From Candidatus Tepidiaquacellales bacterium UBA2330 (GTDB taxonomy: Bacteria > Bacteroidota > Ignavibacteria > Tepidaquicellales > Tepidaquicellaceae), in assembly GCA_002344965.1 (NCBI GenBank), contig DDUU01000010.1:3773-67772 (forward strand): a stretch of 64,000 nt of DNA, read 5' to 3'. The position numbers and the translations under genes were made by a program. The number at the start of each line of letters is the position of its first letter. The stretch's first letter is position 1. Under the pieces are notes generated by a model. That model was given only the letters and a program-made list of their open reading frames with translations, was not told the origin of the DNA and searched no databases. Shown one piece after another: positions 6,976 to 24,687 of the stretch.

Positions 6976-7013
6976 TTGTTACGAATTTTATATTCAATCT
7001 TATTGATATCATA

Positions 7014-7043: not shown

Positions 7044-7074
7044 CAAAAATTATTTTTAATCAAATTAATATTTT

Positions 7075-8184: not shown

Positions 8185-8190
8185 TCAGAA

Positions 8191-9295: not shown

Positions 9296-9409
9296 GCGGT
9301 TTAAAGTAATGCCGCAGCTTAATTTTGCTGTGTATGAAGTTAGCATAAACCGCCACTTGCAGTTACATCGAATACAGAATTTGAATTTAAAAGTATTTAA
9401 TATTTAATT

Positions 9410-9877
9410 TTGATCAGAACTCTGATACAGGATGACAGGGAAAAGATCATTTGCATTCTTAAAGATACGCGGAATTTTTCTGATGACGAAATTGATATTG
9501 CAGTTGAACTTTTGGATGTTTATCTGAATAATCCGGTTCAGAAAGACTATGAAATTTTTGTTGATGAGGATGTTAATATCAGAGGTTATGTCTGCATTGG
9601 ACCAAGACCTCTTACGGAAGGGACATACGACCTTTACTGGATTGCAGTCAATCCTTCTGTTCAGTCTTCAGGAGTCGGAAGCGGATTGATAAATTTTATA
9701 GAGGGTCATATAAAAAATAAAAACGGAAGACTCGTACTTATTGAAACTAGCGGCAAAGAATCTTATGAAAAGGAAAGAAGATTTTATGAGAAAAATAATT
9801 ATAGGTTACTAGTTAATATAAAGGATTTTTATAAACCCGGAGATGATCTTATAGTTTACGGGAAATATCTTAATTAA
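9410..9877 (+). CDS. GNAT family N-acetyltransferase (possible beta-lysine acetyltransferase)
   Basis: 155 aa with the GNAT core (LYWIAVNPSVQSSGVGSGLINFIE...RFYEKNNY). The functional suggestion rests only on adjacency to the lysine 2,3-aminomutase gene. TTG start. Confidence 0.7.
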   Translation: MIRTLIQDDREKIICILKDTRNFSDDEIDIAVELLDVYLNNPVQKDYEIFVDEDVNIRGYVCIGPRPLTEGTYDLYWIAVNPSVQSSGVGSGLINFIEGHIKNKNGRLVLIETSGKESYEKERRFYEKNNYRLLVNIKDFYKPGDDLIVYGKYLN

Positions 9878-9992
9878 TTTTGTGATCAGATTTTTTCTGA
9901 TCTCAGCTGACAATAGATTTTTAAAATGAAGGTTAAACAATGCTTGTTTTTTTTATAAGCATGTTATCTTAAAAAACTAAAAAGGAGAAATA

Positions 9993-11150
9993 ATGGAACT
10001 CTGGCAGGAAATGATCAGAAACAGCGTCAGCTCTGTAGATCATCTTGTTGAGAAATTCAGCATTGAAAGAGAAACAGCGGAAAAGCTCGATGAATTTTTT
10101 CAGGCGAGGATAAATCCGTATTACCTTTCTTTAATCAGATATCCCGGCGATCCCATATGGCTTCAGTGTGTACCTGATATTGCGGAACTTGAAGATATTG
10201 ATTCAGAAGAAGATCCGCTTAATGAAGACGACATGAGCCCGGTTCCCAATATTACTCACAGATATCCTGACAGAGCTTTGTTTCTTGTTACTTCACAATG
10301 CGGACTTTACTGCAGATTCTGTACCAGAAAAAGAAAAGTCGGAGATCAGAGTAAAATATCTATGAGAACTCTGGAGTCTGCTTTTCAGTATCTGGAATCA
10401 CACCCGGAGATCAGTGATGTAATTTTATCCGGAGGAGATCCGCTAATGCTTACTGATAATATGCTGGAAAAAATAATTTTCAGACTGAGACAGATAAAAC
10501 ACATTCAGATTATAAGGCTTGGTACTAAAATGCCCTGTGTACTCCCGCACAGGATTACTCCGCAACTGTGTGAAATGCTAAAAAAATATCATCCGATTTA
10601 TGTTAATACGCATTTTAATCATCCGTGGGAACTGACAGATGAAAGCAAGAGAGCATGCGCAATGCTCGTAGATTCAGGTATCCCTGTAGGTAATCAGTGT
10701 GTTTTGATGAAAGGCGTAAATGATAATGCAGATGTCATGAAAGATCTTATGAAAGGTTTACTTGCAATGAGAGTCAGACCTTATTATATTTATCAGGCGG
10801 ATCTGACCAAAGGAGCTAACCATTTCAGAACTCCTCTTAAAACCGGTCTTGAGATAATGGATAAATTAAGAGGTCATATCTCCGGTCTTGCCGTTCCGCA
10901 TTTTGTCGTTGATGCGCCGGGAGGCGGCGGAAAAATTCCGTTACTTCCGGATTATGTGATCTCTAAAGATGATGAAAAAATTGTTCTGCGAAATTTCAAA
11001 TATAACATTTATGAATATCCTGAAATAGACGGTGATGCCAATTCAAACAATGCTGACCTTTTTATGCGAAGGAAAAAAATCCGCAGGAGATCAGTCAGCA
11101 AGAAGGATAAGATAAGAAAAATTAATATACCCGTACTGAATAATTCCTGA
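9993..11150 (+). CDS. kamA: Lysine 2,3-aminomutase (KamA/AblA family radical SAM, PLP-dependent)
   Basis: It has the CGLYCRFCTRKR radical-SAM cluster motif followed by Arg, plus SGGDPL, HFNHP, GNQCVLMKGVND, YYIYQADL and VVDAPGGGGK (PLP lysine). A strong SD (AAAAGGAG) precedes the ATG. Confidence 0.9.
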   Translation: MELWQEMIRNSVSSVDHLVEKFSIERETAEKLDEFFQARINPYYLSLIRYPGDPIWLQCVPDIAELEDIDSEEDPLNEDDMSPVPNITHRYPDRALFLVTSQCGLYCRFCTRKRKVGDQSKISMRTLESAFQYLESHPEISDVILSGGDPLMLTDNMLEKIIFRLRQIKHIQIIRLGTKMPCVLPHRITPQLCEMLKKYHPIYVNTHFNHPWELTDESKRACAMLVDSGIPVGNQCVLMKGVNDNADVMKDLMKGLLAMRVRPYYIYQADLTKGANHFRTPLKTGLEIMDKLRGHISGLAVPHFVVDAPGGGGKIPLLPDYVISKDDEKIVLRNFKYNIYEYPEIDGDANSNNADLFMRRKKIRRRSVSKKDKIRKINIPVLNNS

Positions 11151-11387: not shown

Positions 11388-11771
11388 ATGCATGGTGTAG
11401 TAGAAGAGTTTATCCCTGTAGTAGCGATTGTTTTTACTTTCGGAATACCGGGTATCATTTTATTCTGGTGGATCTATACAAAGCACAGGGAAAAAATGAG
11501 ACTGATTGAAAAAGGTTTATCGCCGGAAGAAGTAAAAGCTTATTTTGCCGAAAATACTAAACCGAAAAACCCTTACAGCTCTCTGAAGTTCGGTCTGATA
11601 CTTCTCTTCTTCGGGATTGGTATATTTCTGGCAAATGTAGCTGAAAGTATTTATGATGTGGAAGAAGGCGTAATGATGGGAATTATTGTAACATTCATTG
11701 GTCTGGGATTCCTTATATACTTTTTAGTTGTAAGCTCAAAAACAAAAAGCGAATCCTCGGTCAATCAGTGA
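11388..11771 (+). CDS. Small integral membrane protein of unknown function
   Basis: 127 aa with three hydrophobic helices. SD GGAAAGGAG lies upstream. It is followed in the same direction by the lipoprotein/ECF sigma genes. Confidence 0.55.
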   Translation: MHGVVEEFIPVVAIVFTFGIPGIILFWWIYTKHREKMRLIEKGLSPEEVKAYFAENTKPKNPYSSLKFGLILLFFGIGIFLANVAESIYDVEEGVMMGIIVTFIGLGFLIYFLVVSSKTKSESSVNQ

Positions 11772-11800
11772 TTTTTAAATTAGAAGAAAAAATTATCATT

Positions 11801-12598
11801 ATGAAATTATCATTTATTTTTATTGTCTTATTAACATTCTTTATGAACGGATGTGGGCTGCTCTCTAAAAAATACGTGAAGTCAGATAAAGAAGTCCACA
11901 GGGTTTCCGCTGTAGGCAAGAAAACATTATTGATCGAAAATATAAACGGCAATATCAGCTTTGTCAGTTCTTCTGATTCCGGAATTGTAAAGATTGTTGC
12001 GGAAAAGGAAATTAAAGTTAAGAAAAAATATCTTAATACTCCGTTTGATGAAATTACAATTGAAATAGATTCAACAGGAAATGAAATAAAAATTGAATCT
12101 ATTATTAATAATAAAGGAAGAGATGACGGATTCAATTTTAATTTCGACAGAAAACAGAAAGTTGATTATGAAATTTCTGTACCTGAAGGAATCTCAATTT
12201 CTGTTGAAAATGTGAACGGGAAAATATCAGCTGACAATATTTCAAATGATCTGAAAATTGATCAGGTGAACGGCAGCGTCGATCTGGATAATTATTCCGG
12301 ACTACTCGAATGCGACCTGACCAACGGTTCATTTTCAGGAGTTATAGATTCCACAAAAGGTATTAATATTAATGTAATTAACGGAAGCGTTACTCTGAAT
12401 CTAAGTAATTACATAAGTGCGCGCGTAAATGCTCAGTCTGAGAACGGAAAAATAAGTACTGACAATCTGAAATTCTCTGACATGATTCAGGAAAAGAAAT
12501 CATTTAAGGGAAATCTGGGAACAGAAGATAACAGGTCAGAGATAATTATAAAAACAGTTAACGGGAAGATTGTTTTCACGGGGAATAAGGAAATTTAA
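11801..12598 (+). CDS. DUF4097-like beta-strand-repeat lipoprotein (putative adhesin fold)
   Basis: The internal ATG gives a lipoprotein signal, MKLSFIFIVLLTFFMNGC. Repeated NGxI/NGSV beta-strand units (VNGKISADN, VNGSVDLDN, TNGSFSG, INGSVTLN, ENGKISTDN, VNGKIVF) follow. Confidence 0.65.
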   Translation: MKLSFIFIVLLTFFMNGCGLLSKKYVKSDKEVHRVSAVGKKTLLIENINGNISFVSSSDSGIVKIVAEKEIKVKKKYLNTPFDEITIEIDSTGNEIKIESIINNKGRDDGFNFNFDRKQKVDYEISVPEGISISVENVNGKISADNISNDLKIDQVNGSVDLDNYSGLLECDLTNGSFSGVIDSTKGININVINGSVTLNLSNYISARVNAQSENGKISTDNLKFSDMIQEKKSFKGNLGTEDNRSEIIIKTVNGKIVFTGNKEI

Positions 12599-12661
12599 TC
12601 ACTGTTTGATTTTAAAATTTGATTTTTGCAATTTGTCTGTATTAATAAAAGGTATAATCCA

Positions 12662-13309
12662 ATGATTCTGTCTGATTCTGAGATAATAAAAAAAATTAAC
12701 GAAGGAGACACTGCTTCATTCAGGATCATAGTAGATGAATTAAAGGACAAAGCATTATCTTTAACCATGAAAATTCTGAAAAACAGGGAAGATGCCGAAG
12801 ATTGTCTGCAGGAATCATTCCTTAAACTCTTCAGGTCCATTTCATCTGGTAAGTTTGAAGAGAGATCAAAACTGTCAACATATTTTTACACAATAGTTTA
12901 TAATACAGCAGTGGATAATTATAAAAAATTAAAATCACGAAGATTCAGTATAGTTTCTATAGATGTCGAAGGATCAAGTTTTGAAGAAGGCGATGATCTG
13001 CTGCGAAAGTATTATGATGCAAAAATTGAGAAAAGTGAGTTTGATGATAAGTATGACCTGAGCACTGAAAGTAAAATATCAGAGTCCGAAATAAAGCAGA
13101 TCATTAGTGACTATATTAATTCTATTCCGGAACAGTATTCAGTCATTTTAACAATGTTCTATATTAATGATCTTTCTCATGACGATATTGCCGGAATACT
13201 TAAGCTACCGCTCGGAACTGTCAAAAACAGAATTTTCCGCGCAAAGAGTAAATTAAAAGAAATCATTTTAAAAAAATTTTCCGAAGAGGAAATTCTTCAG
13301 TATGTATGA
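12662..13309 (+). CDS. ECF-type RNA polymerase sigma-70 family factor
   Basis: Region 2 reads EDAEDCLQESFLKLF...YFYTIVYNTAVDNYKK. Region 4 HTH reads LSHDDIAGILKLPLGTVKNRIFRAKSKLK. An unusually long acidic linker separates regions 2 and 4. Confidence 0.8.
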   Translation: MILSDSEIIKKINEGDTASFRIIVDELKDKALSLTMKILKNREDAEDCLQESFLKLFRSISSGKFEERSKLSTYFYTIVYNTAVDNYKKLKSRRFSIVSIDVEGSSFEEGDDLLRKYYDAKIEKSEFDDKYDLSTESKISESEIKQIISDYINSIPEQYSVILTMFYINDLSHDDIAGILKLPLGTVKNRIFRAKSKLKEIILKKFSEEEILQYV

Positions 13310-13788
13310 AAAAATTTAGTTTTACTATTAAAAATTTTTACAGTATTTTTAACACGATGCCGGACGGTAATAATAAAAATATTGATTCTTATCTCGATGA
13401 TAACATAAGACAGTCTCTGAAGTCAAAAACTTCTGATGATTTTTCTTTTGAAATGATGAAACGGGTCGAGATTGAAAAAGAGTTTGCCAGGCAGGACAGA
13501 AAAACAGACAATGTTGCAAAGTTTGTTATCGGCAGTTTGCTTGCCGCTATGATAATATTATCTGTAGGTATTCCGCTTCTTTTCGGAGTTTCGGATACAG
13601 ACCAAAGTCCCGGCTTTTTCAGTATGCTGACGGATAATCTTACAGACGCTATTGAATATTTCAGTATTATTACGGCTGAAAATCTTGGAATAGCATTTAA
13701 CTTAAAAACATTGTCCGTTATTATTGTTTCATCTGTCTTTATTTTTCTTTTTTCAAAAGCTGACAAGCTGTTATTGAAAAAGTTTTAA
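13306..13788 (+). CDS. Putative anti-sigma factor/membrane protein
   Basis: Its start overlaps the sigma gene stop (ATGA). It is 160 aa with a central and a C-terminal transmembrane helix. The call rests on position only. Confidence 0.45.
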   Translation: MKKFSFTIKNFYSIFNTMPDGNNKNIDSYLDDNIRQSLKSKTSDDFSFEMMKRVEIEKEFARQDRKTDNVAKFVIGSLLAAMIILSVGIPLLFGVSDTDQSPGFFSMLTDNLTDAIEYFSIITAENLGIAFNLKTLSVIIVSSVFIFLFSKADKLLLKKF

Positions 13789-13846: not shown

Positions 13847-14599
13847 TTAGTACTCTATAAATCCCCTGTTAATACTGTTCACTTTTCTTCCGGTCCTTCT
13901 GAATACGCCAATTCCTTCACGACTTCCCCCTTCATTTGTATTGCCTTCTATCGTAGTAAGATATCCGCCGTTAACTGATTCTACTATACCCGTATGACCT
14001 AATCCTCCGCCGTATGACATTATAAATACCTGACCCGGCTTTATCAGAGAAGGATTAGCTGTGGCTGCTGCTGATGTTATTTTCTTACCTTTAGTATTAT
14101 TCCAGTGATTAAGCACTCCGGCAGTTTTATAAACAGGATTTTTTATACCGGTGCTTTTTGATACTTCGTCAAAACACCAGTACACAAAAGCAGCACACCA
14201 TGCGTAACCTTTTCCCAGTCCTACGCTTTTAAGGTAAGCGTCCACTTCAGGTCCGCTGTTGCTGCCTCTCGGCTTTTCAACAACTCCGATCTGACTTTTT
14301 GCTTTTGCAAGAACCTTTTTTGCAAACTCCGGCAATGGTCCCGGTTCCGGTCCGATAGACTTTAAACTAAACAACGTCGCCCACGTGATAGGACCTACTT
14401 TACCGTCAACAATCAAAGGTCTTCCCTGCTGATCAGTAAATCTGCTCTGAAAAAGTTTGACGGCATTGAAAGTCTTTGGACCGTATCCGCCGTCCACGTC
14501 TACCGGCCCGCATCCGTTCTCATTTAATTTCTTCTGAATTTCTTTTACAATTTTTTTATCTTTCTCTCCTTTGACAATTACTCTTTTTGGATATTCCAT
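13847..14599 (-). CDS. Peptidoglycan-binding domain + CHAP domain cell-wall hydrolase
   Basis: The N-terminal PG_binding_1-like motif is GGYGPKTFNAVKLFQ...VDGKVGPITWATL. The C-terminal CHAP-like region has the Cys in GKGYAWCAAFVYWCF and the later GHTGIV histidine. No signal peptide is visible. Confidence 0.7.
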   Translation of the reverse strand: MEYPKRVIVKGEKDKKIVKEIQKKLNENGCGPVDVDGGYGPKTFNAVKLFQSRFTDQQGRPLIVDGKVGPITWATLFSLKSIGPEPGPLPEFAKKVLAKAKSQIGVVEKPRGSNSGPEVDAYLKSVGLGKGYAWCAAFVYWCFDEVSKSTGIKNPVYKTAGVLNHWNNTKGKKITSAAATANPSLIKPGQVFIMSYGGGLGHTGIVESVNGGYLTTIEGNTNEGGSREGIGVFRRTGRKVNSINRGFIEY

Positions 14600-14896
14600 T
14601 ATTTTAAATTTTTTAGATTTATAAAAAAGTTAAATCAAAATAGATAAATGACATATTAATTTCAATAAGCGTAACTACTCAATACTTAAAATTATTAGTC
14701 CAATAACATTTTTAATGATTGATTTATTTCTAAGGAAAATTATTACTGCCGGTATTAATTCACATACATTAAACCGTAATTGAGTTTTTATTATCAAACA
14801 GCTGTGAATTTAAATAAATAAAATTTTTTAAAATTTCCTGCAGAATTGTTTCGACAACGAATTTTATATTTAAACTTCAAATCATTTAAGTTATAA

Positions 14897-15511
14897 TTGA
14901 TAAACCAATATTCTTACTTTTTAAAATTGAGAAACCGATCTGTCTTATTCATAAAAAACATGGTAAGTCTCAGATGCATAAGTGATTTAGAGAATATTCT
15001 GAGTAATCTGGAAAGCGTTAAGGTTCTGAATATATCACTTGGTAAAGCTGAGATTTTTTATGATGAGGAAAAGATCTCCGCAGAGGAAATCTCAGCCGAA
15101 CTTTCCAGAAATAACTTTCAGATCATCAGCGACAGAAATATTCAGTTAGTGGAACAAATTAAGAACGCCTGTATTGAATTGATCTATTTCGGCAATAATA
15201 CCAACTCGCTGATCAGAAATTCCGAATATCTGAGTGAAAGATTAAATTTACAGTATTCCTATATCAGTAAATTCTTTTCTGAAAATACCAATACTACACT
15301 TGAAAAATTTTTAATAAAAGTTAAAATAGAAAAAGTAAAAGAGCTGTTAAGTTATAATGAAATGACATTAAGTGAAATTGCATATATGATGGGATACAGC
15401 AGTGTTCAGTATCTAAGTAATCAGTTCAGACAAATAACCGGAGTTTCTGTTACCGAGTACAGGCACGGCGCAGATATAAAAAGAATACCTCTTGAAAATC
15501 TTCTGCTGTAA
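14897..15511 (+). CDS. AraC/XylS-family transcriptional regulator with N-terminal degenerate HMA-like domain
   Basis: The C-terminal AraC HTH reads TLSEIAYMMGYSSVQYLSNQFRQITGVSVTEYR. The N-terminus resembles a ferredoxin-fold HMA domain, but the MxCxxC metal site reads NMVSLRC. TTG start, with an alternative ATG at 14960. Confidence 0.7.
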   Translation: MINQYSYFLKLRNRSVLFIKNMVSLRCISDLENILSNLESVKVLNISLGKAEIFYDEEKISAEEISAELSRNNFQIISDRNIQLVEQIKNACIELIYFGNNTNSLIRNSEYLSERLNLQYSYISKFFSENTNTTLEKFLIKVKIEKVKELLSYNEMTLSEIAYMMGYSSVQYLSNQFRQITGVSVTEYRHGADIKRIPLENLLL

Positions 15512-15603
15512 ATTACCTACCGCTGTAATCTTATAACAAATTGTATTTAAACTGTAACAATTTATTTCTTCATGTTTTATAGTTTTGTATAACAATTATA
15601 AAT

Positions 15604-15858
15604 ATGAAAATAAAAAATAATATAGCAATAAGTGATTCGGGTTTTATTTTTAATCCGGCTACAGGTGATTCATTTTCTGCAAATCCTGTCGGTCAGAAGA
15701 TTTTTAAAATGCTTCAGACCTCAGCAACCGAAGAAGAGATAACAGCTGATATTCTCGAAACTTATCAGATTGACAAAGTTCATTTTGAAAAGGATTTTTA
15801 TGATTTTATTAATGTACTGAAAAAGTACAAACTCCTGGAGGAAATTGAAAAAGACTGA
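15604..15858 (+). CDS. PqqD-family protein (RRE-type peptide chaperone-like)
   Basis: 84 aa. The pattern GFIFNPATGDSFSANPVGQKIFKMLQTSATEEEITADILETYQIDKVHFEKDFYDFINVLKKYKLLE matches the PqqD/RRE consensus. It has an acidic C-terminus, EEIEKD. Confidence 0.7.
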   Translation: MKIKNNIAISDSGFIFNPATGDSFSANPVGQKIFKMLQTSATEEEITADILETYQIDKVHFEKDFYDFINVLKKYKLLEEIEKD

Positions 15859-16894
15859 TATCACAATTGCAGTTACCGGTCTTAACGCAATTGACAGTCC
15901 GGGACCCGGTATCTCAGTAATCAGAGCAATAAGGAAAAGCAATTTTTATAATCCGCGCATTATAGGTCTTTCATATGATACAATGGAACCCGGCATTTAT
16001 ATGCATGACCTGGTTGATAAATCTTATCAAATCCCGTTTCCTTCTGTCGGAACAGATAATCTTCTTTTCAGATTAAAGGAAATTAATGACAAGGAAAAAA
16101 TTGATGTTATAATACCAAACTTTGACGCCGAACTGTTCAATTTCATAAAATTGGAAAAAAGACTTCTGGAACAATGTAATATAAGAATGTTCCTTCCTTC
16201 AATGAAACAGTTTGAAGAAAGACAGAAAGCAAACCTTTATGAATTCGGGAAAAAATATAATCTGAAAGTTCCTAAGAATAAAACAATATATTCTCTGAAT
16301 GATATTAATAAAATAGAATATGAATTTTCATTTCCCGTTGTAGTTAAAGGAAAATACTATGATGCTAAAGTAGCTTATAATAAAGATCAGATCGCGGAAC
16401 ATTTTAACAGAATAAGCATCAAGTGGGGACTTCCGATAATAATTCAGGAATATGTTTTCGGTTCGGAAGTTAATGTCACTGCAATAGGCGACGGGACGGG
16501 AAAAACTATCGGGGCTGTACCGATGAGAAAACAGTATATAACCGATAAAGGAAAAGCATGGTCAGGAATTTCACTCGATGATGATAAACTCTTAAAAATT
16601 ACATCAGATCTAATCAAGTCAACTAAATGGAAAGGATCAATGGAACTTGAATTTATCAAGACTTCAAATGATGAATATTTTTTACTTGAAATAAATCCCC
16701 GGTTTCCGGCATGGGTTTATCTTGCTGTCGGCTGCGGTCAGAATCATCCGGATGCGCTGCTTAAAATGGCTCTGGGAAAAAAAGTAAACGCTTTCCCAAA
16801 ACATGAAACGGGAAAAATGTTCATAAGGTATTCCTATGATATGATTATAAATTTAAAAGAATTTGAAAAAATCTCAACTTCAGGAGAATTATAA
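15845..16894 (+). CDS. ATP-grasp domain ligase (carboxylate-amine ligase type)
   Basis: 349 aa with FPVVVKGKYYDA, IIIQEYVFGSEVNVTAIGD and ELEFIKTSNDEYFLLEINPRFPAW motifs. It overlaps the PqqD-like gene by 14 nt. Confidence 0.75.
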   Translation: MKKTDITIAVTGLNAIDSPGPGISVIRAIRKSNFYNPRIIGLSYDTMEPGIYMHDLVDKSYQIPFPSVGTDNLLFRLKEINDKEKIDVIIPNFDAELFNFIKLEKRLLEQCNIRMFLPSMKQFEERQKANLYEFGKKYNLKVPKNKTIYSLNDINKIEYEFSFPVVVKGKYYDAKVAYNKDQIAEHFNRISIKWGLPIIIQEYVFGSEVNVTAIGDGTGKTIGAVPMRKQYITDKGKAWSGISLDDDKLLKITSDLIKSTKWKGSMELEFIKTSNDEYFLLEINPRFPAWVYLAVGCGQNHPDALLKMALGKKVNAFPKHETGKMFIRYSYDMIINLKEFEKISTSGEL

Positions 16895-18277
16895 ATGAAA
16901 AAACAGCAGTATGAAAGACCTGTTTTACAGTTACTGAATTCAGGCACTATGAACAAATACGGGACAAAGACTGAGTATGCGCCTTTTACGCATATTGACG
17001 GCGCAAGCATTCAAGATCTTACGGATAAATTCGGTTCCCCCCTTTTTGTAGTTTCCGAAAAAAAAATCAGATCAAATTTTAAGGATGCAAACCGTTCATT
17101 TAAAACACGGTATCCGAAAGTACAGTTTGCCTGGTCATACAAAACAAATTATCTGAATGCGGTATGCAATGTATTTCATCAGGAAGGCTCATGGGCGGAA
17201 GTAGTTTCCGGATTTGAATACAGTAAAGCGCTTAATAACGGCGTACCCGGAAGTAAGATTATTTTCAACGGACCGGATAAAACTGATGAAGATCTTCGCA
17301 CTGCAATTATGAATAATTCTCCGATTCATATTGATCATCTGGACGAACTGTACATGCTGCAGGAAATTTCCGAAGAGACCGGCATAAGACCAAAAGTCGC
17401 TATCAGAGTGAATATGGATACCGGCATTTATCCGATGTGGGACAGATTCGGATTTAATTATGAAAACGGTCAGGCATGGGATGCAATTAATAAAATCATG
17501 CTGAATGATAAACTTGATCTGGTCGGATTGCACTGCCATATCGGCACTTTTATGCTTGCTCCGAATGCATATTCAATTGCTGCAGCAAAACTTTCTGATC
17601 TTGCTTTAAACATAAAGTATAAATACAAAAGGAATATTCAGTATATCGATATGGGCGGCGGTTTCCCGTCGAAGAATACTCTGAAAGGTTCTTACCTTCT
17701 TGGCATAGACACTGTCCCGACTATAGATCAGTTTGCTGAGGCAATTTGCTCATCAATTCTAAACGCAGGATTTCTGGAGGAAGAGCTTCCGCTGCTTATT
17801 CTAGAAACAGGAAGAGCGCTGATTGATGACGCCGGATATCTTATAGGAAGCGTGATCTCAAACAAAAGATTATCAGACGGAAGAAGAGCTGTCATTATGG
17901 ACTTCGGTGTGAATATAATGTTTACCTCATTTTGGTATGATCATAAGATCACGCCGGCTCAGGAGTTCAGTGATTTTACTGAAGACATGGTGCTTTACGG
18001 ACCGCTTTGTATGAATATAGATGTAATCAGAGAGCATGTAACTCTGCCGCTGCTTAAAAGAAATGATAAAGTCGTTGTCCATACTGTCGGCGCATATAAT
18101 ATGACACAATGGATGCAGTTCATTTCATTAAGACCGGCTGTTGTCATGATTGATAAGAAAGGTGTACCTCATGAAATCAGAAAACGCGAATCAATAAATT
18201 CAATTGAATCTGAAGAAATAGTACCTGAATATTTAAAGACATTCAGTTTAAACGGAATTGAAAAAAGAACAGGCTAA
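16895..18277 (+). CDS. Orn/DAP/Arg decarboxylase family-2 PLP-dependent decarboxylase (LysA/BtrK-like)
   Basis: 460 aa. It has a PLP-lysine context (FAWSYKTNYL), a glycine loop (IDMGGGFPS) and an active-site Cys context (YGPLCMNIDVI). Its start abuts the ATP-grasp stop. Confidence 0.8.
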   Translation: MKKQQYERPVLQLLNSGTMNKYGTKTEYAPFTHIDGASIQDLTDKFGSPLFVVSEKKIRSNFKDANRSFKTRYPKVQFAWSYKTNYLNAVCNVFHQEGSWAEVVSGFEYSKALNNGVPGSKIIFNGPDKTDEDLRTAIMNNSPIHIDHLDELYMLQEISEETGIRPKVAIRVNMDTGIYPMWDRFGFNYENGQAWDAINKIMLNDKLDLVGLHCHIGTFMLAPNAYSIAAAKLSDLALNIKYKYKRNIQYIDMGGGFPSKNTLKGSYLLGIDTVPTIDQFAEAICSSILNAGFLEEELPLLILETGRALIDDAGYLIGSVISNKRLSDGRRAVIMDFGVNIMFTSFWYDHKITPAQEFSDFTEDMVLYGPLCMNIDVIREHVTLPLLKRNDKVVVHTVGAYNMTQWMQFISLRPAVVMIDKKGVPHEIRKRESINSIESEEIVPEYLKTFSLNGIEKRTG

Positions 18278-20459
18278 GGAATATTTATATTTCTATTTTG
18301 AAGGCATAATTAACAGTTACTCACGTGTTTTCTTTTCTAAAAGTAAAATCTTTGCTTTCATTATTATTGTTGCAACGTTTATCAATCCCGCATCGGGTCT
18401 AAGCGGGCTGATAAGTCTTGCCGCTACGCTTTTATTTGCTGTATGGTTTGGTTATGACAAAATTTTTATAAGGGACGGTTATTACGGATTCAATTCGCTT
18501 CTGACAGGTTTAGCGCTTGGCGTTTACTATGAATTCTCTCCGGCATTCATTTTTGTTCTTTTGTTTGCATCAATGCTGACTCTATTGATAACAGTCTGGC
18601 TTGCCGTATTCCTCGGTTACTATAACATCCCTTTTCTTACAATGCCGTTTCTTCTCAGCACATGGATTTCAATTCTTAGTATCAGAACATTTAAGGCAAT
18701 TGAATTAAGCGAACGCGGAATTTATGTCTTCAATGAAGTTCAGAATTTCGGCGGAGTTTATCTTTTGAAATTCTATGATCAGATCATTAGTCTGAATATT
18801 CCGTTTGTCATCGACGCATATCTCAAATCACTCGGGGCTATTTTTTTTCAGTATAATATTTTTGCAGGTTTTATAATTGCAGCAGGAATTCTTTATTATT
18901 CCAGGATTGCATTTTCTCTTTCACTTGTCGGATTTTTCTCCGGTTACTTTTTTTATTTTTTTCAGAAAGCTGAATTCTCGGATGTGTATTACAGCTATAT
19001 CGGATTTAATTTCATCCTGACCGCTGTTGCGCTCGGAGGATTTTTCTTTGTTCCGTCCGGAAAAACTTTTTTACTTGTTATAATTGCAAGCCCCCTCGTT
19101 GCCGTTATACTCAGCGCATTCAGCTATATATTCAATATTATACAGCTTCCGATTTATTCTCTTCCTTTTTCTCTTATTGTAATTCTCTTTATTTTTGCCA
19201 TGAGCAGCAGGTTAACTCCCAAAGGAATTAACTATGTTACAAATCAGCAGAACTCCCCAGAGAATAATTTATACAAATATGCAAACAGGATTGAGAGATT
19301 TCAAAGGGATACTTATTATCATTTCCAGCTTCCGTTTTACGGAAAATGGTTTGTATCGCAGGGCATTAACGGAAAGATCACTCACATGGAAGACTGGAAA
19401 TATGCATGGGATTTTGTAGTGAAAGATGAATCCGGCAGGACTTTTAACAATACGGGAACATCGCTGAATGATTTTTACTGTTTCAATCTTCCCGTATTAG
19501 CATCTGCTGCAGGTTATGTTTCGGAAGTCGTAAATGATGTTGAAGATAATGAGATTGGCGGAGTTAATATTTCTGAGAACTGGGGAAATACTGTTGTAAT
19601 TAAACACGATAATTTCCTTTACAGTAAAGTTTCACATCTCAGGAAAAACAGTATCAGATTAAAGAAAGGTGATTATGTGAAAAAAGGTGACATTCTGGGA
19701 CACTGCGGAAATTCAGGCAGATCTCCGGAGCCGCATCTGCATTTTCAAATTCAGTCCAGTGATCTTATTGACGGTAAGACAATTAAATATCCTTTCTGTT
19801 ATTACCTTTTGGAAAAAGACAATGAAAATCTTTTCAGGTCTTTCGATTACCCGGAAGAGGGTGAAACGGTTATGAAAGTTCAAAGCACAAATCTTATAAG
19901 GGAATCTTTCAGATTTTCTCCCGGCACAGTTATGAATTTTGAATCTGAAAATGAAAAAGGAGAAAAGCAAAAAGTAAAATGGGAAGTATTCGTAGATGCT
20001 TATAACTATCCTTATATTTACTGTTACAATTCAAAATCATTCGCATATTTTATAAACAATGAAACGCTTCATTACTTTACTGACTTTACAGGAGACAGAA
20101 AATCACTATTGTATTATTTTTATTTGGCAGCGAATAAAATACTTCTCGGATATTATGATAATATGGAAATCAAAGACAAACTTCCTCTTTCAGGCATTTA
20201 TTCCGGTCCGTTAAAAATACTGCAGGATTTTATAGCTCCGTTTTATATTTTTCTGAAAGCGGATTATTCTTTTTCATTTAAATATATTGATAATGAATTA
20301 AACCCTTCTGAGATCGTAATTTCCTCACAGGCAGTTACCGGATTCGGTAAAACCATAAACAGAAAATTAGACTTTGAATTAACTTTAATTAATAACAATT
20401 TAAAAAAAATATTAATATCAGACGGCAAAAAAAACATATCGGCGGAATACATTTCCTGA
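18258..20459 (+). CDS. Fusion protein: urea-transporter (UT) family membrane domain + M23 (LytM-type) metallopeptidase domain + uncharacterised C-terminal domain
   Basis: The N-terminal roughly 330 aa are polytopic, with UT-like signatures (INSYSRVFFSKSKIF..., DGYYGFNSLLTGLALG). The central M23 domain reads WKYAWDF...GYVSEV...GNTVVIKHD...GDILGHCGNSGRSPEPHLHFQI. TTG start overlaps the decarboxylase gene by 20 nt. Confidence 0.7.
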   Translation: MKKEQAKEYLYFYFEGIINSYSRVFFSKSKIFAFIIIVATFINPASGLSGLISLAATLLFAVWFGYDKIFIRDGYYGFNSLLTGLALGVYYEFSPAFIFVLLFASMLTLLITVWLAVFLGYYNIPFLTMPFLLSTWISILSIRTFKAIELSERGIYVFNEVQNFGGVYLLKFYDQIISLNIPFVIDAYLKSLGAIFFQYNIFAGFIIAAGILYYSRIAFSLSLVGFFSGYFFYFFQKAEFSDVYYSYIGFNFILTAVALGGFFFVPSGKTFLLVIIASPLVAVILSAFSYIFNIIQLPIYSLPFSLIVILFIFAMSSRLTPKGINYVTNQQNSPENNLYKYANRIERFQRDTYYHFQLPFYGKWFVSQGINGKITHMEDWKYAWDFVVKDESGRTFNNTGTSLNDFYCFNLPVLASAAGYVSEVVNDVEDNEIGGVNISENWGNTVVIKHDNFLYSKVSHLRKNSIRLKKGDYVKKGDILGHCGNSGRSPEPHLHFQIQSSDLIDGKTIKYPFCYYLLEKDNENLFRSFDYPEEGETVMKVQSTNLIRESFRFSPGTVMNFESENEKGEKQKVKWEVFVDAYNYPYIYCYNSKSFAYFINNETLHYFTDFTGDRKSLLYYFYLAANKILLGYYDNMEIKDKLPLSGIYSGPLKILQDFIAPFYIFLKADYSFSFKYIDNELNPSEIVISSQAVTGFGKTINRKLDFELTLINNNLKKILISDGKKNISAEYIS

Positions 20460-20467
20460 TCATTATT

Positions 20468-21835
20468 TTGTTTATGATTTCCTTTTCTGAAGTCAGATCT
20501 CAGAGCGATTCAGCTTTGAATAACGCTGAAAAGATTTCTTATGATCTTTTCAGCAAAGGAAAATGGAACGAGCTTATCTCGTTTTCAGAAAACGCATTAA
20601 AGAAAAATATTGATTTTATTTTTCTGGGAGTCAGACTTGGTATCGCATATTATGAAACGGAGAAATACTTTGATGCAATTGTCCATTTAAAAAAAGCTTT
20701 TGACCTCGGATATGAAACTCCTTCTGCAATTGAATATCTGTATTACTCATATCTTCAGGCTGGCAGACAGGAAGATGCTGATTTTTATTTTTACCGGCTT
20801 CCTAAAAATAAAAGAGACAGAATAAAGCCGCAGGATAATTCATTTATGAATAAATTTTATGCAGACGGAGGGTTCGGATTCAGCAATGATAAAAGTAAAA
20901 ATGAAAACACTGATATTGACGGGAGCGATAATATATACGGAGAGCAGCTTATTAACAAAAACTATTTTTTTATCAGCCTGGGTTTTAAGCAGCTTCCTCT
21001 GAGATGGCTGAATTTAACATATAACTATAATTATCTGGATCTGAAAAAAGCAAAGGTAATAAAATATAATGATGTCAGTATCACTGATGACTACAAGCAG
21101 CAGCAGCAGCAGTTCTATCTTAAATTTGATATCAGAGCGGGAGACGGTTTTGTTATAAGTCCATCAGGTCATTATGTCTTTGTAAAGGATAAAACCATTT
21201 ATGCGGATTATGACAGCGCGACTTTCAGCTATAATGCGCAGACTATGAGTTATGATTCATTGAAATATTATTACAGCATACTTCAAAGAGAAAATATTCA
21301 GGATGATTACGTAATTTCCCTCTCGCTGTCCAAACAGTTTTATATTTACAAAACAGCTCTGCACGGCAGTTACTCGTTTCTTAACGGAAGCAATCAGACT
21401 CAGCTCGGAGCAAATATGACTTTTTATCCGAAAAAGAAAAATACTCTTTATACATTTTCAGATATAACTCTTCACAGTCAGAATGATGTAACGAATTTAA
21501 TTTTCTTTCAGTCAGCAGGCGGCAAACTTTATAAAGATCTGTGGGGTGAAGTCTTTGCGGCTTTCGGCAGAATGAATAATTACAATGAGCAGAACGGTGC
21601 GCTTGTATTTAATAATCCGGATGTGACCGTTTTTAAATTCGGCGCAGAGTTTAATTATTATTTCAGTAAAAATATTTCAGCATCGCTTGTGTACGTTAAT
21701 CAGCAGAGAGAAAAAAAGTATCTGACATATTCGTTATCAGGATTCAGTAACAATCTTCCTGTTACTTATCCTGAATTAGTTGATCTTAAATATTCAGTTA
21801 ATACAATCCTCGGAGGTTTTAAAATTTATTTTTAA
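20468..21835 (+). CDS. TPR-like N-terminal domain + predicted outer-membrane beta-barrel protein
   Basis: 455 aa with TPR-like helices at the N-terminus. The second half has alternating aromatic beta-strand patterning, and the protein ends in ...ILGGFKIYF with a terminal Phe. The N-terminus is uncertain because the signal-peptide h-region lies in-frame upstream of the first canonical start. Confidence 0.55.
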   Translation: MFMISFSEVRSQSDSALNNAEKISYDLFSKGKWNELISFSENALKKNIDFIFLGVRLGIAYYETEKYFDAIVHLKKAFDLGYETPSAIEYLYYSYLQAGRQEDADFYFYRLPKNKRDRIKPQDNSFMNKFYADGGFGFSNDKSKNENTDIDGSDNIYGEQLINKNYFFISLGFKQLPLRWLNLTYNYNYLDLKKAKVIKYNDVSITDDYKQQQQQFYLKFDIRAGDGFVISPSGHYVFVKDKTIYADYDSATFSYNAQTMSYDSLKYYYSILQRENIQDDYVISLSLSKQFYIYKTALHGSYSFLNGSNQTQLGANMTFYPKKKNTLYTFSDITLHSQNDVTNLIFFQSAGGKLYKDLWGEVFAAFGRMNNYNEQNGALVFNNPDVTVFKFGAEFNYYFSKNISASLVYVNQQREKKYLTYSLSGFSNNLPVTYPELVDLKYSVNTILGGFKIYF

Positions 21836-21851
21836 TAATAATCATAATAAC

Positions 21852-22484
21852 ATGAAGACATTTAAAATGTATTATAAATTATTTTTTTTCCTTTTCACAG
21901 CGTTTCTTATTAATGTAAATACGTCATTATCACAAAATGATCCCGTTACGGAAGCATTCTCTAAAAGCCTGAAAAACGAAGCGATTCCGGATTATACTCA
22001 GGCGATAAAAGATATCCGGGAAGTTTATCTTGCTGATTCCTATGAAATGAATCTCAGACTCGGTTGGCTTTATTATAAAAGTGAAAACTATAACGAATCT
22101 ATGAATTATTACCAGAAGGCAATTGATCTAATGCCTTATTCCATTGAAGCAAAACTTGGATATAACCTTCCTGCATCGGCTGCTAATCTCTGGGATAAAG
22201 TAATTGAAAATTATGATAAGATACTTCTGCAGGATCCGCAGAATACTTTTGTAAATTATCAGCTTGGAAATATTTATTACTACAGACAGGAATATTCCAA
22301 AGCCAGTTCGCTTTTTGAAAAAGTAGTGAATTTGTATCCGTTCGGATATGATGCACTGTTAATGTATGCTTGGACAAACTATCAGCTCGGACTTTACAGG
22401 GAAGCAAAAATTTTATTTAATAAAGTTCTTATGCAGAGTCCCGGTGACGCTTCTGCGCTTGAAGGACTCGGACTCATTAAATAG
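21852..22484 (+). CDS. Secreted tetratricopeptide-repeat protein
   Basis: The signal peptide is MKTFKMYYKLFFFLFTAFLINVNTSLSQ. Several TPR units follow (YNESMNYYQKAIDLMP, YQLGNIYYYRQEYSKASSLFEKVVNLYP, REAKILFNKVLMQSP). Confidence 0.7.
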   Translation: MKTFKMYYKLFFFLFTAFLINVNTSLSQNDPVTEAFSKSLKNEAIPDYTQAIKDIREVYLADSYEMNLRLGWLYYKSENYNESMNYYQKAIDLMPYSIEAKLGYNLPASAANLWDKVIENYDKILLQDPQNTFVNYQLGNIYYYRQEYSKASSLFEKVVNLYPFGYDALLMYAWTNYQLGLYREAKILFNKVLMQSPGDASALEGLGLIK

Positions 22485-22497: not shown

Positions 22498-24687
22498 TCA
22501 TTTTAGAAGTATTAAACGATTTATCATTGCAGTATTTTCGAATTCCATTCTGCAAAAATAAAGACCTCCGGGCAGATCGCTGCCGTTAAACTCAATATGA
22601 TATTTTCCTTCTTTCCTAATATCATTTAAAAGAATTGCGACTTCTTTACCCAGAATGTTATAAACTTTTATATTTACAAATCCGCGCCGGGGAATTGAAA
22701 AACTGATCTGCGTGACCGGATTAAAAGGATTAGGATAATTTGTGAGTGATGAGATACTTTTTACACTTTTTTTATTTTTAAAAATCTCTGCAGATTGAAG
22801 GATAATGTCTTTCTCTGAATATAAGATACTTCCGTTTTCTCCAAATGCATAAATACCCGCACCGTCATAATTTAAAGATAGTATATTATTGTTTGTAATT
22901 AAGTTTATTTTTTGCCAGCTGACTCCTGCATCTTCTGAAAAAATCATGGTTCCTTTATTTCCGGCTGATATGACATTCAGATCATCAGTGAATAAAACTG
23001 AATTAAGATTTTTAAATTGAATGGGGCTGATGTAATGCCAGCTTTTCCCGCCGTCTGAGGTTCTGAATATCACTCCGTTTTCTCCGGTGATAATTCCCGT
23101 TCCGCTCCGGTTAAAAATTACTGCGTGAAGATCATAAGGCGTCAGATTTTTTATATTCCAGCTTACTCCGCCGTCATAAGTTGTTGCTGTACTTCCGTTG
23201 CCGCCAACGGCAAATCCGGTCATATAATCCTTAAAGTATATATCCCGAAACATTCCTTCACCCGGATTTTGGAAAATAATTTTCCAGCTTAATCCTCTGT
23301 CAGTTGTTTTATATATGATCCCTTTCCCGGAATTCTCAATTCCGCCGGCTAAGAATCCGCTGTATTTATCTTTGAAAAAAATTTTATTAACTGCTATACA
23401 CTTTACTGGCGGAGAAATTTCCATCCAGAAATCACCGCCGTCTGTTGTCCGGAATAACTTTCCTTTATTACTGCATACAAATCCTGTAAGCGGATCTGAA
23501 AACGTTACGCTGTTTAAAATTATATCCTTTGATATAAAAATTTTTTCCCATTCCGGAGAGCCGGCTTTTTTTCTCATTATCAGACCGCTGTCACCGGTGC
23601 AGTAAATCACGCTTTTATCTGTTACATAGCTGTCATTAAGATTACAATTATTTCCCGAAAGATTAACTAAATCTTTTCCGATGCCCGGCATTTTCAAAAC
23701 TCTGCCTCCGTTTCCCGATAATAATATATTATGATTATCATAGTAAAAGACATCTTTGAAAATTTCCGTTTTCAGATAACTGAATCTCTGTGAAGAGTCT
23801 GCATTCCAGCTGCTGCCTTCGTCAGTTGTCCATAGTATAGTTCCGAGGTCTGTAACTATAAATCCGCTGTCCGCATTTTCAAAATCCATTGCTCTTACAA
23901 GATCAACGCTGCCTCCGAAGAGATAGTGAAGACCGAGAGAATTTCTCTGCCAGTAATTTCCGCCGTCATTTGAGAAATAAAAATCTCCTGATGGGGAATT
24001 TCCCGCTGCATAAATTTTATTACTGTCTATATACTTGATTCCGGTAATCTGAGTCGCCGGCAGTATGCCTGCATTCAGCGCATTCCAGCTGATCCCGCCG
24101 TCTGTTGTTTTTATGATAATATTATACCCGCCGCAAACGCCTGTCAATTCATCTATAAAGCTTATACAAAAAAGCGGTAAACCGGTTTGGGCATTTATGC
24201 TTGTCCAGTTTTTCCCGCTGTCAGCGCTCCTCATTATAAATCCGTTTAATCCGCATATAAAATAATTATTGCCCGCAATATCAATGTCATGTAAATCCGG
24301 CATAGAAAAACCTGTTACATTTTCCCAGTTGATTCCGCCGTCTTCAGTTCTCGAAAGTACACCGTTTTTACCGGCGGCGATTCCGTTAACGGTATTGAGA
24401 AATTTTATTTTGTGAATGTTATTCTCAGTTCCTGATGAAAGTTTCTCCCAGTTTTTTCCTCCGTCAGTAGTTTTTAAAATGCATCCTAAATCACCTGCGG
24501 CAAATCCGGTTTGCTCGTTTATAAATTCTACAGAGTTTAATGTATTTCCTGCCGGAAGAGGATGTTGCCAGTGCCATTCGCTTTGGGAAAAAACTGACAC
24601 TCCTGATAAAAATATAAACGTAAAAGAAAACTGCACAATTCGTACAGCAGAATACATAATTTCAATAACTCTTTTCATAATGATCAT
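22498..24687 (-). CDS. BNR/Asp-box (Ycf48-like) multi-propeller protein with T9SS C-terminal sorting domain
   Basis: 729 aa with at least 11 S/T-x-D-G-G-x-x-W repeats (TTDGGKNWEKL, TEDGGINWENV, TTDGGISWNAL and others). The C-terminus reads NYPNPFNPVTQISFSIP...GGLYFCRME...RLILLK. Confidence 0.8.
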   Translation of the reverse strand: MIIMKRVIEIMYSAVRIVQFSFTFIFLSGVSVFSQSEWHWQHPLPAGNTLNSVEFINEQTGFAAGDLGCILKTTDGGKNWEKLSSGTENNIHKIKFLNTVNGIAAGKNGVLSRTEDGGINWENVTGFSMPDLHDIDIAGNNYFICGLNGFIMRSADSGKNWTSINAQTGLPLFCISFIDELTGVCGGYNIIIKTTDGGISWNALNAGILPATQITGIKYIDSNKIYAAGNSPSGDFYFSNDGGNYWQRNSLGLHYLFGGSVDLVRAMDFENADSGFIVTDLGTILWTTDEGSSWNADSSQRFSYLKTEIFKDVFYYDNHNILLSGNGGRVLKMPGIGKDLVNLSGNNCNLNDSYVTDKSVIYCTGDSGLIMRKKAGSPEWEKIFISKDIILNSVTFSDPLTGFVCSNKGKLFRTTDGGDFWMEISPPVKCIAVNKIFFKDKYSGFLAGGIENSGKGIIYKTTDRGLSWKIIFQNPGEGMFRDIYFKDYMTGFAVGGNGSTATTYDGGVSWNIKNLTPYDLHAVIFNRSGTGIITGENGVIFRTSDGGKSWHYISPIQFKNLNSVLFTDDLNVISAGNKGTMIFSEDAGVSWQKINLITNNNILSLNYDGAGIYAFGENGSILYSEKDIILQSAEIFKNKKSVKSISSLTNYPNPFNPVTQISFSIPRRGFVNIKVYNILGKEVAILLNDIRKEGKYHIEFNGSDLPGGLYFCRMEFENTAMINRLILLK

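Follow-up and report, generated by a model that had tools for sequence, protein, structure and literature searches.

In lasso peptide biosynthesis, B1 proteins recognise a YxxPxL motif at positions −17 to −12 of the precursor leader, and in butirosin biosynthesis the ATP-grasp ligase BtrJ and the decarboxylase BtrK act on an amino acid that is tethered via its side chain to a small protein, the carrier BtrI. According to the paper on FigC, the enzymes FigC, SbnH, AcsE, MccE and BtrK belong to one clade together with diaminopimelate (DAP) decarboxylase (DAPDC) and D-ODC; the five first-named enzymes all act on conjugated amino acids, and their specificity is determined by the so-called specificity helix and by the residue that follows the catalytic Cys. 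Proteins that join a urea transporter (UT) domain to an M23 domain are listed in a survey (Biol Direct 2026), which gives no function or operon context. Here we analyse an operon in which relatives of all these proteins are encoded side by side. [quoted passage not shown] We found that the only conserved B1-type recognition motif within this operon is located on the N-terminus of the decarboxylase itself.

The initial annotation, which was made from the sequence alone, could not match this gene combination to any described pathway, and this assessment holds. A literature search for the combination of PqqD, ATP-grasp, decarboxylase, urea transporter, M23 and RiPP gave no description of the system, and NCBIfam gave only sub-threshold matches for the six window proteins, so that no curated family covers any of them. 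The domains that had been assigned were all recovered, either with Pfam or with AlphaFold2 (AF2) models searched in Foldseek. Relatives of the ATP-grasp protein exist in thousands at 64–71% identity and are named merely "ATP-grasp domain-containing protein" or "carbamoyl-phosphate synthase large subunit". The operon looks like an undescribed pathway.

Our main sample comprised 85 fetched loci that were searched with tblastn, of which about 80 were used for the comparison of intergenic and upstream regions. The ATP-grasp gene was detected in all 85, the PqqD gene in 83 and the decarboxylase gene in 81, followed by the genes for the UT/M23 protein (74), the TPR protein (67) and the fast-evolving barrel protein (at least 59). 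In these loci the six genes are always collinear and on one strand, and the gaps in detection are found mostly at contig ends. The same gene order, for which the initial annotation had suggested to look in Ignavibacteria and Bacteroidota, is indeed kept in about 80 fetched genomes, and we also saw the same six genes in the same order in neighbourhoods from Flavobacteriales and Chitinophagales and on one further contig. When the open reading frames (ORFs) of the loci were clustered all against all, the six operon families were the only near-universal ones. This arrangement is far beyond chance. A pattern scan with one genome per species showed that at least 586 species genomes encode a relative. 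The ATP-grasp protein of the window is 96% identical (tblastn, protein level) to that of an Ignavibacteria metagenome-assembled genome (MAG), its orthologues are 59–72% identical across Bacteroidota, and the operon enzymes are 60–80% identical across the phylum.

Two loci showed irregularities. In a Bacteroidales MAG (L058, 8760–11567) the PqqD frame is broken in two and the decarboxylase was recovered over residues 167–450 only, which suggests frameshifts, either by pseudogenisation or by assembly errors. In L003 an extra gene for a protein of 115 amino acids (aa) with a weak cytochrome-c-like match (12466–12813) is inserted between the decarboxylase and UT/M23 genes.

A lasso-type RRE and a leader-like decarboxylase tail

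The family profile of the PqqD-like protein matched the structures of the lasso B1 proteins TbiB1 (5v1u, 3.2e-16) and TfuB1 (6jx3, 5.3e-11), and two further lasso PqqD chaperones at about 2e-5, versus values of only 0.02 (3g2b) and 1.6 for true PqqD structures. Judged by these profile matches, the protein is specifically lasso-B1-like. Its conserved core reads GFxFNPxTGDSFSxNPIG...FEKDxYDF. The C-terminal acidic tail (LLEEIEKD in the window), which had been put forward as a possible LysW-like ligation site, varies across the family both in its length and in its last residue. This excludes a fixed ligation site of the LysW type, and we dropped the idea.

A cis-encoded precursor peptide is likewise ruled out. 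Clustering of the intergenic ORFs of 12–79 aa in about 80 loci gave no conserved family, and no precursor ORF is evident in the distant variants described below. The 22-codon ORF at 14715–14783, which the initial annotation had mentioned as a weak precursor candidate, is unique to the window and conserved nowhere. The assignment as an RRE-type protein stands, with the modification that the recognition motif, which the initial annotation had not noted, sits on the decarboxylase tail and that no lineage shows a precursor in cis.

The decarboxylase starts with an extension of about 28 residues that is absent from FigC, MjDAPDC and BtrK. A YxxPxL-type motif is present on this N-terminus in 71 of 72 orthologues. 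In an alignment of 71 orthologues, E7, R8, P9, K21 and G23 are kept in all sequences, as is I, L or V at position 11, while Y6 and N20 are each found in 70. The full pattern, Y..P.[LIVM] with a Lys at Y+15, is found in 70 of the 72 decarboxylases, whereas all 1061 other ORFs of these loci lack it. Counted in leader numbering, Y+15 of the decarboxylase corresponds to lasso position −2. This is the residue that an RRE-bound leader presents to the processing enzymes.

The decarboxylase domain itself found its best PDB match in FigC (7kh2, 1.5e-54), followed by MjDAPDC and BtrK, the latter at about 1e-24 (7ru7, 2j66). The NCBIfam models remained below their cut-offs, with 227 versus 500 bits for FslC and 213 versus 298 bits for lysA. 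The PLP lysine is K83. At the position of the DAPDC Arg that binds the distal carboxylate we found T344, Y348 corresponds to Y331 of FigC, and the Cys loop around C372-M373 reads C-M-N-I-D, compared with C-M-Q-H-D in FigC and C-E-S in DAPDC. K83, T344, Y348 and the C-M loop residues are invariant in 71 orthologues, and we can therefore conclude that the enzyme is not LysA; a true DAP decarboxylase is ruled out by these specificity residues together with the NCBIfam cut-off. The residues point to an amino acid attached via its side chain as the most likely substrate. The comparison with BtrJ and BtrK, which ligate first and then decarboxylate, had already been drawn in the initial annotation and fits well, given that the decarboxylase is closest to FigC/FslC, is related to BtrK and has FigC-like residues.

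The ATP-grasp protein gave sub-threshold NCBIfam matches to CPSase-like, PylC and Ddl models, as well as remote similarity to 2pn1. Its Mg/ATP motifs are intact, and the residues E282 and N284 of the ExN Mg site are invariant. The NCBIfam scan showed no match to the graspetide maturase model, and neither Pfam nor NCBIfam gave a match to RimK or LysX.

A profile search of 1.8 billion representatives furnished 280 relatives below 1e-30, many of which are tandem double ATP-grasps. We also found natural fusions, namely ATP-grasp::decarboxylase (P0349) and PqqD::ATP-grasp (P0393). In a Riflebacteria locus (L087) the genes encode TPR, PqqD, ATP-grasp, decarboxylase and UT::M23. L086 encodes TPR, PqqD::ATP-grasp, a second ATP-grasp-like protein, decarboxylase and UT::SIR2::GNAT, and L090/L091 encode TPR, PqqD, a tandem ATP-grasp, decarboxylase and UT::SIR2, next to a divergent sigma-54 two-component system. 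PqqD, a tandem ATP-grasp, decarboxylase and a membrane SIR2 protein make up L094, while L088 has TPR, TonB_C-like and HEAT proteins with PqqD and an ATP-grasp::decarboxylase fusion, and no UT protein. Finally, L095 contains PqqD, ATP-grasp, a membrane protein, ATP-grasp and a short decarboxylase. From these fusions and variants we can conclude that PqqD, ATP-grasp and decarboxylase make up the invariant core. Its membrane partner is usually a UT domain with a C-terminal M23, SIR2 (sirtuin) or SIR2 plus GNAT domain. M23, sirtuin and GNAT domains all act on amide bonds, and sirtuins cleave N-epsilon-acyl-lysine. Exported TPR proteins with signal peptides go along with the core in most of the variants whose flanking sequence is long enough (L086, L087, L088, L090 and L092); none was called in L094 or L095.

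The tail motif extends into these variants. It reads YEKPSL in L087, YEKPRL in L092 and YRPPQI in L094, each time with a Lys at +15, and YQPPLI with a Lys at +14 in L086. In the ATP-grasp::decarboxylase fusion of L088 we detected YVRPSI in the inter-domain linker.

The L095 locus (4626–10402) stands somewhat apart. It encodes a PqqD of 66 aa, a membrane protein of 296 aa between the two ATP-grasps and a tail-less decarboxylase of 418 aa, and it also contains two URO-D genes and a gene for a Cys-rich protein of 376 aa. The locus may represent a sister pathway with a different RRE ligand. A perfect co-occurrence of PqqD with the decarboxylase tail had to be given up, because L095 breaks this rule.

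Membrane and envelope proteins

The UT/M23 family comprises 4233 relatives, all about 725–745 aa long. The UT domain aligned over its full length to dvUT (3k3f, 5e-32), and the AF2 model of the fusion protein (predicted local distance difference test, pLDDT, 86.6) matched dvUT (3k3g) in Foldseek with a TMt of 0.85. The ten-helix UT fold and the signature motifs, GFN twice and LTxPF, are kept. Within the urea-recognition motif as defined by recent structures (Q-V...Y/F...T in each half), Q(Pa) is Gln in at least 90% of the family and Arg in the window (residue 23, 18324–18326); the Q(Pb) position is Ala throughout the family (Ala194 in the window), and the T5a/T5b positions are mostly Ser. The urea_trans_yut model reached 119 bits versus a cut-off of 275 bits.

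For the M23 domain, Foldseek gave matches to DipM, EnpA, ShyA and EnvC. H460 and H493-x-H495 are invariant, and so are H376 and D385, two extra residues further upstream. The position of the canonical HxxxD, however, reads N398-T-G-T-S402 and is not conserved. Without the canonical HxxxD, the domain has either a non-canonical metal site or is non-catalytic. We saw no transmembrane or hydrophobic segment after residue 330, and the N-terminus and the linker are rich in Lys and Arg. UT proteins have an N-in/C-in topology. Together, this places the M23 domain and the beta domain that follows it in the cytoplasm. SIR2 enzymes need NAD, and GNAT enzymes need acetyl-CoA. The presence of SIR2 or GNAT domains at the same position in the variants L086, L090 and L094 is thus an independent argument that this position is cytoplasmic. 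Of the inner-membrane channel fused to an M23 peptidase that had been described initially, the UT channel stood; the M23 domain is now seen as cytoplasmic and devoid of HxxxD. A periplasmic, peptidoglycan-cleaving M23 enzyme is ruled out by the topology and by the SIR2/GNAT replacements.

The C-terminal domain (residues 513–733) has many invariant residues and shows a confident beta structure in the model. It gave no match in Pfam, NCBIfam or the PDB, and a Foldseek search with the complete model gave no matches other than those to UT and M23.

The 455-aa barrel protein had no Pfam match. Its AF2 model, calculated from 40 homologues, shows TPR-like helices (residues 14–119) followed by strands (129–454) that form a beta-barrel of about 14 strands. 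Foldseek returned generic FadL/porin barrels only, and a relaxed Pfam scan of 40 family members gave only TPR and weak OMP_b-brl matches. Assignment to Slam/DUF560 or to another named barrel family was dropped, as neither search supported it. The homologues carry A-Q signal peptides, which the window protein would lack if it started at TTG 20468. The in-frame upstream sequence RRQKKHIGGIHFLIIILFMISFSEVRSQ (window 20396–20470) supplies a signal peptide and is conserved at the protein level in the near-identical Ignavibacteria MAG L006, so that the start is likely further upstream. The frame suggests that the gene very probably begins at a non-canonical start codon, ATT 20411 or ATC 20417, overlapping the UT/M23 stop. 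The TPR protein, which starts at ATG 21852, has the signal peptide MKTFKMYYKLFFFLFTAFLINVNTSLSQ. Signal peptides, barrel model and topology together support the distribution over cytoplasm, inner membrane, periplasm and outer membrane that had been proposed at the outset.

Operon layout, regulators and neighbouring genes

The mechanical ORF list reproduced the seven ORFs of the initial annotation with their coordinates: an AraC gene followed by the six-gene unit, all on the + strand (Table 1). The PqqD and ATP-grasp genes overlap by 14 nt, the ATP-grasp stop directly abuts the decarboxylase ATG, and the decarboxylase and UT/M23 genes overlap by 20 nt. Gaps of 8 nt and 16 nt follow, the first counted to the annotated TTG of the barrel gene and the second to ATG 21852 of the TPR gene, and 13 nt separate the end of the unit from the convergent gene, which lies at 22498. 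These junctions bear out the claim that the six genes form a translationally coupled unit.

Table 1. Coordinates of the operon, its regulator and individual domains in the window.
Feature	Position	Strand	Evidence or remark
AraC-family regulator, degenerate HMA-like N-terminal domain	14897..15511	+	HTH_18/AraC 1.5e-15; accessory, outside conserved core
TAGTTTTG, Bacteroidota-type −7 promoter-like element	15580..15587	+	sequence read; 16 nt before PqqD ATG 15604
PqqD-family RRE, lasso-B1-like, 84 aa	15604..15858	+	PF05402 8.4e-11
ATP-grasp carboxylate-amine ligase, 349 aa	15845..16894	+	ATPgrasp_Ter 2.8e-10; ATP-grasp_3
Alanine-racemase-fold PLP decarboxylase, FigC/BtrK/DAPDC clade, 460 aa	16895..18277	+	Orn_Arg_deC_N 5.5e-28; C-terminal domain
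Leader-like N-terminal tail of decarboxylase, residues 1–28	16895..16978	+	YERPVL 16910–16927; Lys21 16955–16957
UT domain of fusion protein (gene 18258–20459)	18258..19217	+	PF03253 1.2e-57, residues 16–314
M23/LytM-fold domain of fusion protein	19320..19787	+	PF01551 6.6e-16, residues 411–500
All-beta C-terminal domain of fusion protein, residues 513–733	19794..20459	+	confident beta structure in model
TPR/beta-barrel outer-membrane protein	20411..21835, very probable start (annotated TTG 20468)	+	AF2 model pLDDT 91.2
Exported (periplasmic) TPR protein, 210 aa	21852..22484 (ORF opens 21780)	+	TPR_2 3.8e-19 among others

The AraC gene had been counted as the first of seven operon genes. Homologues with about 50% identity are located directly upstream in only 33 of the 85 loci, and in about ten loci without AraC (L017, L023, L029, L030, L036, L042, L052, L053, L062 and L080) the gene directly upstream encodes a hybrid histidine kinase of about 735 aa and the one directly downstream a LytTR response regulator. 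The operon thus comprises the six genes that follow AraC in the window, its regulators are interchangeable, and AraC as a universal seventh member is ruled out. Among the distant variants, L088 has a PAS hybrid kinase in addition to the sigma-54 two-component system already mentioned for L090. The AraC protein showed weak CopZ-like matches at its N-terminus (residues 13–75), which forms a ferredoxin-like HMA domain (window 14897–15130; 32 loci, e.g. L008, L010 and L024). Of the GMxCxxC metal site only NMVSxxC is left here, in which one Cys is conserved, a form common to the AraC homologues. The domain's sequence suggests that it senses a ligand and has lost metal binding of the classical kind.

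The promoter-like element TAGTTTTG, a TAnnTTTG-type motif, is present 16 nt before the ATG as described initially. Upstream of PqqD the strict TAnnTTTG is found in 8 of 80 loci (3% in shuffles), A..TTTG in 39% of loci (9% in shuffles) and the TTTG core in 66% (26% in shuffles). As a conserved element the strict motif is therefore weak, and the enrichment concerns the TTTG core only.

The convergent neighbour (22498–24687, − strand) encodes a 729-aa BNR/Ycf48-like/sortilin-repeat protein with a type IX sorting domain (Por_Secre_tail). Divergent from the AraC gene lies a gene for a CHAP-domain protein with PG_binding_1 (13847–14599, − strand). Among the 85 fetched loci its homologue was seen only in L006, and it is for this reason probably unrelated to the operon. 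Beyond it follow an extracytoplasmic function (ECF) type sigma-70 gene (12626–13309), which overlaps by 4 nt with the gene for a 160-aa membrane protein (13306–13788), likely an anti-sigma factor, and, directly upstream of the ECF gene, a gene for a 276-aa protein without a Pfam match (11768–12598). A second, separate cluster of the amide-ligase type is located further upstream (window 4310–11150, + strand). It contains a choloylglycine-hydrolase/AAT-family Ntn hydrolase (5155–6351), several small ORFs, two tandem D-Ala-D-Ala-ligase-like ATP-grasp genes (7075–8184 and 8191–9276) and a lysine-2,3-aminomutase-like radical-SAM gene (9993–11150); in other loci this cluster shows no synteny with the operon. 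A MarR-GNAT fusion gene lies at 2462–3460.

Proposed pathway, alternatives and comparison with known systems

We tentatively favour, while granting that it falls somewhat short of an even chance, a conserved and inducible pathway that spans the envelope and starts with docking of the decarboxylase tail by the RRE; ligation and decarboxylation would come next, and the UT-fused amidase would release the product. The lasso-B1-type RRE, the ATP-grasp ligase and the FigC/BtrK-type PLP decarboxylase would form a cytoplasmic three-protein machine. Instead of a free precursor, the RRE would dock the decarboxylase's own tail (YERPV[I/L]...NK21xG) and present it to the ATP-grasp enzyme, most plausibly with the epsilon-amine of Lys21 as the acceptor. 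The ligase would then couple the side chain of an amino acid to the tail, so that the alpha-amino and alpha-carboxyl groups of this amino acid stay free, and the decarboxylase would strip the alpha-carboxylate of the tethered residue, as in the BtrJ/BtrK, FslA/FigC and MccD/MccE pairs. A UT-fused cytoplasmic amidase, M23 here and sirtuin-type elsewhere, may finally release the small product at the mouth of the channel, and the exported TPR protein and the TPR/barrel protein would handle it in the envelope. Our observations cover what the operon consists of and how it is conserved, the natural fusions, the residues for specificity, the type of RRE, the motif in the tail and the compartments; that the RRE binds the tail, that Lys21 is the site, which amino acid is attached, how it is released, what permeates the channel and which role the pathway plays are inferred. 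The narrower proposal, that the RRE has been co-opted for an enzyme-embedded leader and that Lys21 serves as a carrier arm which is aminoacylated, decarboxylated in cis and freed by the UT-fused deacylase, is possible, although we consider it doubtful.

Several points weigh against this pathway. The tail is not universal: the L088 fusion has Arg instead of Lys at Y+15 and no UT protein, the L090/L096 lineage keeps just L-x5-G-x3-K with Tyr and Pro out of register, and L095 combines a PqqD gene with a decarboxylase without the tail. The conservation of the tail motif could also have to do with structure or catalysis and nothing with the RRE. The pore of the urea type is very narrow, its urea-recognition residues are only partly retained, and the M23 domain, which lacks the HxxxD zinc ligands, could be non-catalytic. 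The 60–80% identity of the enzymes fits a fixed, housekeeping-like chemistry and not a diversifying natural product. Finally, tethering, decarboxylation and release would in sum amount to a plain decarboxylation, so that a step is probably still missing. This could be a second ligation, which is suggested by the tandem ATP-grasps in other phyla, the formation of a lactam or an acyl-ADP-ribose product, or the transfer to an envelope acceptor.

A first alternative is a pathway on free small molecules of the FslA/FigC type, which we regard as unlikely but worth serious attention. Here the ATP-grasp enzyme would join two soluble metabolites, for example an acid and the side-chain amine of Orn, Lys or Dap, the decarboxylase would trim the conjugate to an N-acyl-diamine or a similar small amide, and the product would exit via the UT channel and the barrel; PqqD and the tail would just assemble a channelling complex. 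The invariant FigC-like specificity residues agree with this, the enzyme conservation suggests one fixed small substrate, a pore of the UT type is suited to a solute that is small, neutral and polar, a precursor ORF is missing, and L095 manages with a PqqD gene and no decarboxylase tail. On the other hand, every characterised PqqD/RRE binds a peptide and the RRE of the operon is B1-like, while an invariant Lys at a fixed distance from YxxPx[L/I] is not needed for docking alone. The recurrent partner domains (M23, sirtuin and GNAT) are enzymes of protein or peptide amide bonds and do not belong to those that tailor small molecules, and exported TPR proteins usually bind peptides or proteins.

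Taking the RRE at face value leads to a pathway of the classical RiPP or scaffold-peptide kind, similar to those of PQQ or the pearlins, with a precursor gene elsewhere in the genome. The RRE would bind this peptide, the ATP-grasp enzyme and the decarboxylase would modify it, and M23 or SIR2 would process it before export. The B1-like RRE, which is fused to the ligase in P0393, speaks for such a scheme, as do the exported TPR proteins, the RRE of L095 that exists without a decarboxylase tail, and the peptidase domain on a membrane protein, which recalls peptidase-containing exporters. We nevertheless judge it improbable, because no conserved small ORF exists within about 9 kb in about 80 loci or in the distant variants and because the sole conserved B1-type motif in the operon lies on the decarboxylase. 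Moreover, a peptide cannot pass the UT pore, and the conservation of the enzymes is atypically high for RiPP tailoring.

The usual place of M23 peptidases and of homologues of DAP decarboxylase is in cell-wall or lysine metabolism, and a CHAP/PG-binding gene adjoins the operon in the window. One may thus think of peptidoglycan or muropeptide remodelling, in which the Ddl-like ligase, the DAP-decarboxylase-like enzyme and M23 would act on stem peptides, for example in a conversion of peptide-linked meso-DAP. This is very improbable: the M23 domain is cytoplasmic, lacks HxxxD and is replaced by SIR2 or GNAT in other lineages, the decarboxylase has neither the DAP-binding Arg nor an acidic residue after the catalytic Cys, and the CHAP gene is kept just in the near-identical L006.

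A plain channel that conducts urea or small amides for the uptake or sensing of nitrogen and is regulated by its fused domain, next to enzymes of some unrelated pathway or of a defence system, is hardly credible, since the UT fold with most of its channel motifs and the frequency of SIR2 domains in defence systems are outweighed by the strict synteny and translational coupling with the enzyme trio across phyla, by the lack of urease or nitrogen genes nearby and by PADLOC, which gave no match for any component, neither for the six window proteins nor for the UT::SIR2 variants, so that a defence system was dropped.

The operon breaks with several expectations: an RRE operates without a precursor, a lasso-leader motif sits on an enzyme, an M23 domain is cytoplasmic and interchangeable with sirtuin/GNAT, and a urea-channel fold is the membrane partner of a biosynthetic machine. 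Its genes are abundant, with thousands of protein clusters and the species genomes counted above in several phyla, strongly conserved and tightly regulated. If the narrower proposal of an enzyme-embedded leader is true, a whole phylum would make a small amine or amide in a way not described before and either export it or pass it on to an acceptor in the envelope; UT-fusion proteins, and a cytoplasmic M23 domain, would for the first time have a function. An understanding of the operon would extend the known uses of RiPP recognition elements, and it would probably bring to light a metabolite or modification that is directed to the envelope and widespread in Bacteroidota, a phylum of importance for gut, soil and freshwater ecosystems. 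With the motif in the tail, Lys21, the gene fusions found in nature and the variants with SIR2, the hypothesis can be tested directly with few constructs.

How does the operon compare with the known systems? Of each known family it lacks at least one defining trait. With lasso peptide biosynthesis it shares the PqqD protein, which is closest to the B1 proteins, and the YxxPx[L/I] motif with a conserved residue at Tyr+15. It differs in that there is no separate precursor, that the motif is on the N-terminus of an enzyme and that the partner is an ATP-grasp ligase; no domain of the transglutaminase-like lasso B2 protease or of the Asn-synthetase-like cyclase occurs in the six genes or in the recurrent neighbours. 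The graspetide survey does not describe this operon layout, and an adjacent precursor is absent here as well.

The likeness to butirosin biosynthesis concerns the ATP-grasp enzyme and the BtrK-homologous decarboxylase (about 1e-24), whose genes are adjacent or fused here, and the tandem or double ATP-grasps of the variants recall BtrJ, which acts twice. In contrast, the proposed tether would be an RRE-recognised tail, probably with a Lys amide and not a thioester. We detected no phosphopantetheinyl carrier (PP-binding domain) in the operon or its recurrent neighbours, and the operon has a membrane UT fusion and envelope proteins, with no aminoglycoside context. The LysW/LysX and ArgW systems also combine a small acidic-tailed protein with an ATP-grasp enzyme and share the concept of a protein-tethered amino acid. 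Carriers of the LysW type end in a conserved Glu; here, however, the PqqD C-terminus is not conserved and there is no zinc-ribbon LysW fold.

Among the siderophore enzymes FslA/FigC (rhizoferrin), SbnH and AcsE, FigC is the closest solved relative. These pathways also ligate first and then decarboxylate, and the Thr and Tyr of the specificity helix as well as the Cys-Met loop are common to FigC and the operon decarboxylase. The operon enzyme differs from FigC by W347 and I375 in place of T330 and H357, and the ligase is of the ATP-grasp type; an NIS synthetase (IucA/IucC) is absent from the operon and its neighbours, as are genes for siderophore uptake. In microcin C, MccE has a decarboxylase of the same clade that acts on a peptide-linked carboxy-aminopropyl group and is fused to a GNAT domain, and a GNAT is associated in the L086 variant, too. 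MccA, MccB, MccD and nucleotide chemistry are missing in our case, and the membrane components differ.

On the side of the envelope, the fusion protein shares the full-length UT fold with dvUT and Yut, but keeps the urea motif only in part and has no urease context. PgaA, BcsC and AlgK/AlgE of synthase-dependent polymer secretion, as well as Slam, all represent pairs of periplasmic TPRs and outer-membrane barrels, to which the operon offers an architectural analogy only: we found no sequence-family match, the strands of the barrel number about 14, and a glycosyltransferase gene is missing here. Set beside these systems, the operon would be an RRE-guided, tethered amino-acid tailoring pathway whose membrane and envelope architecture is unprecedented.

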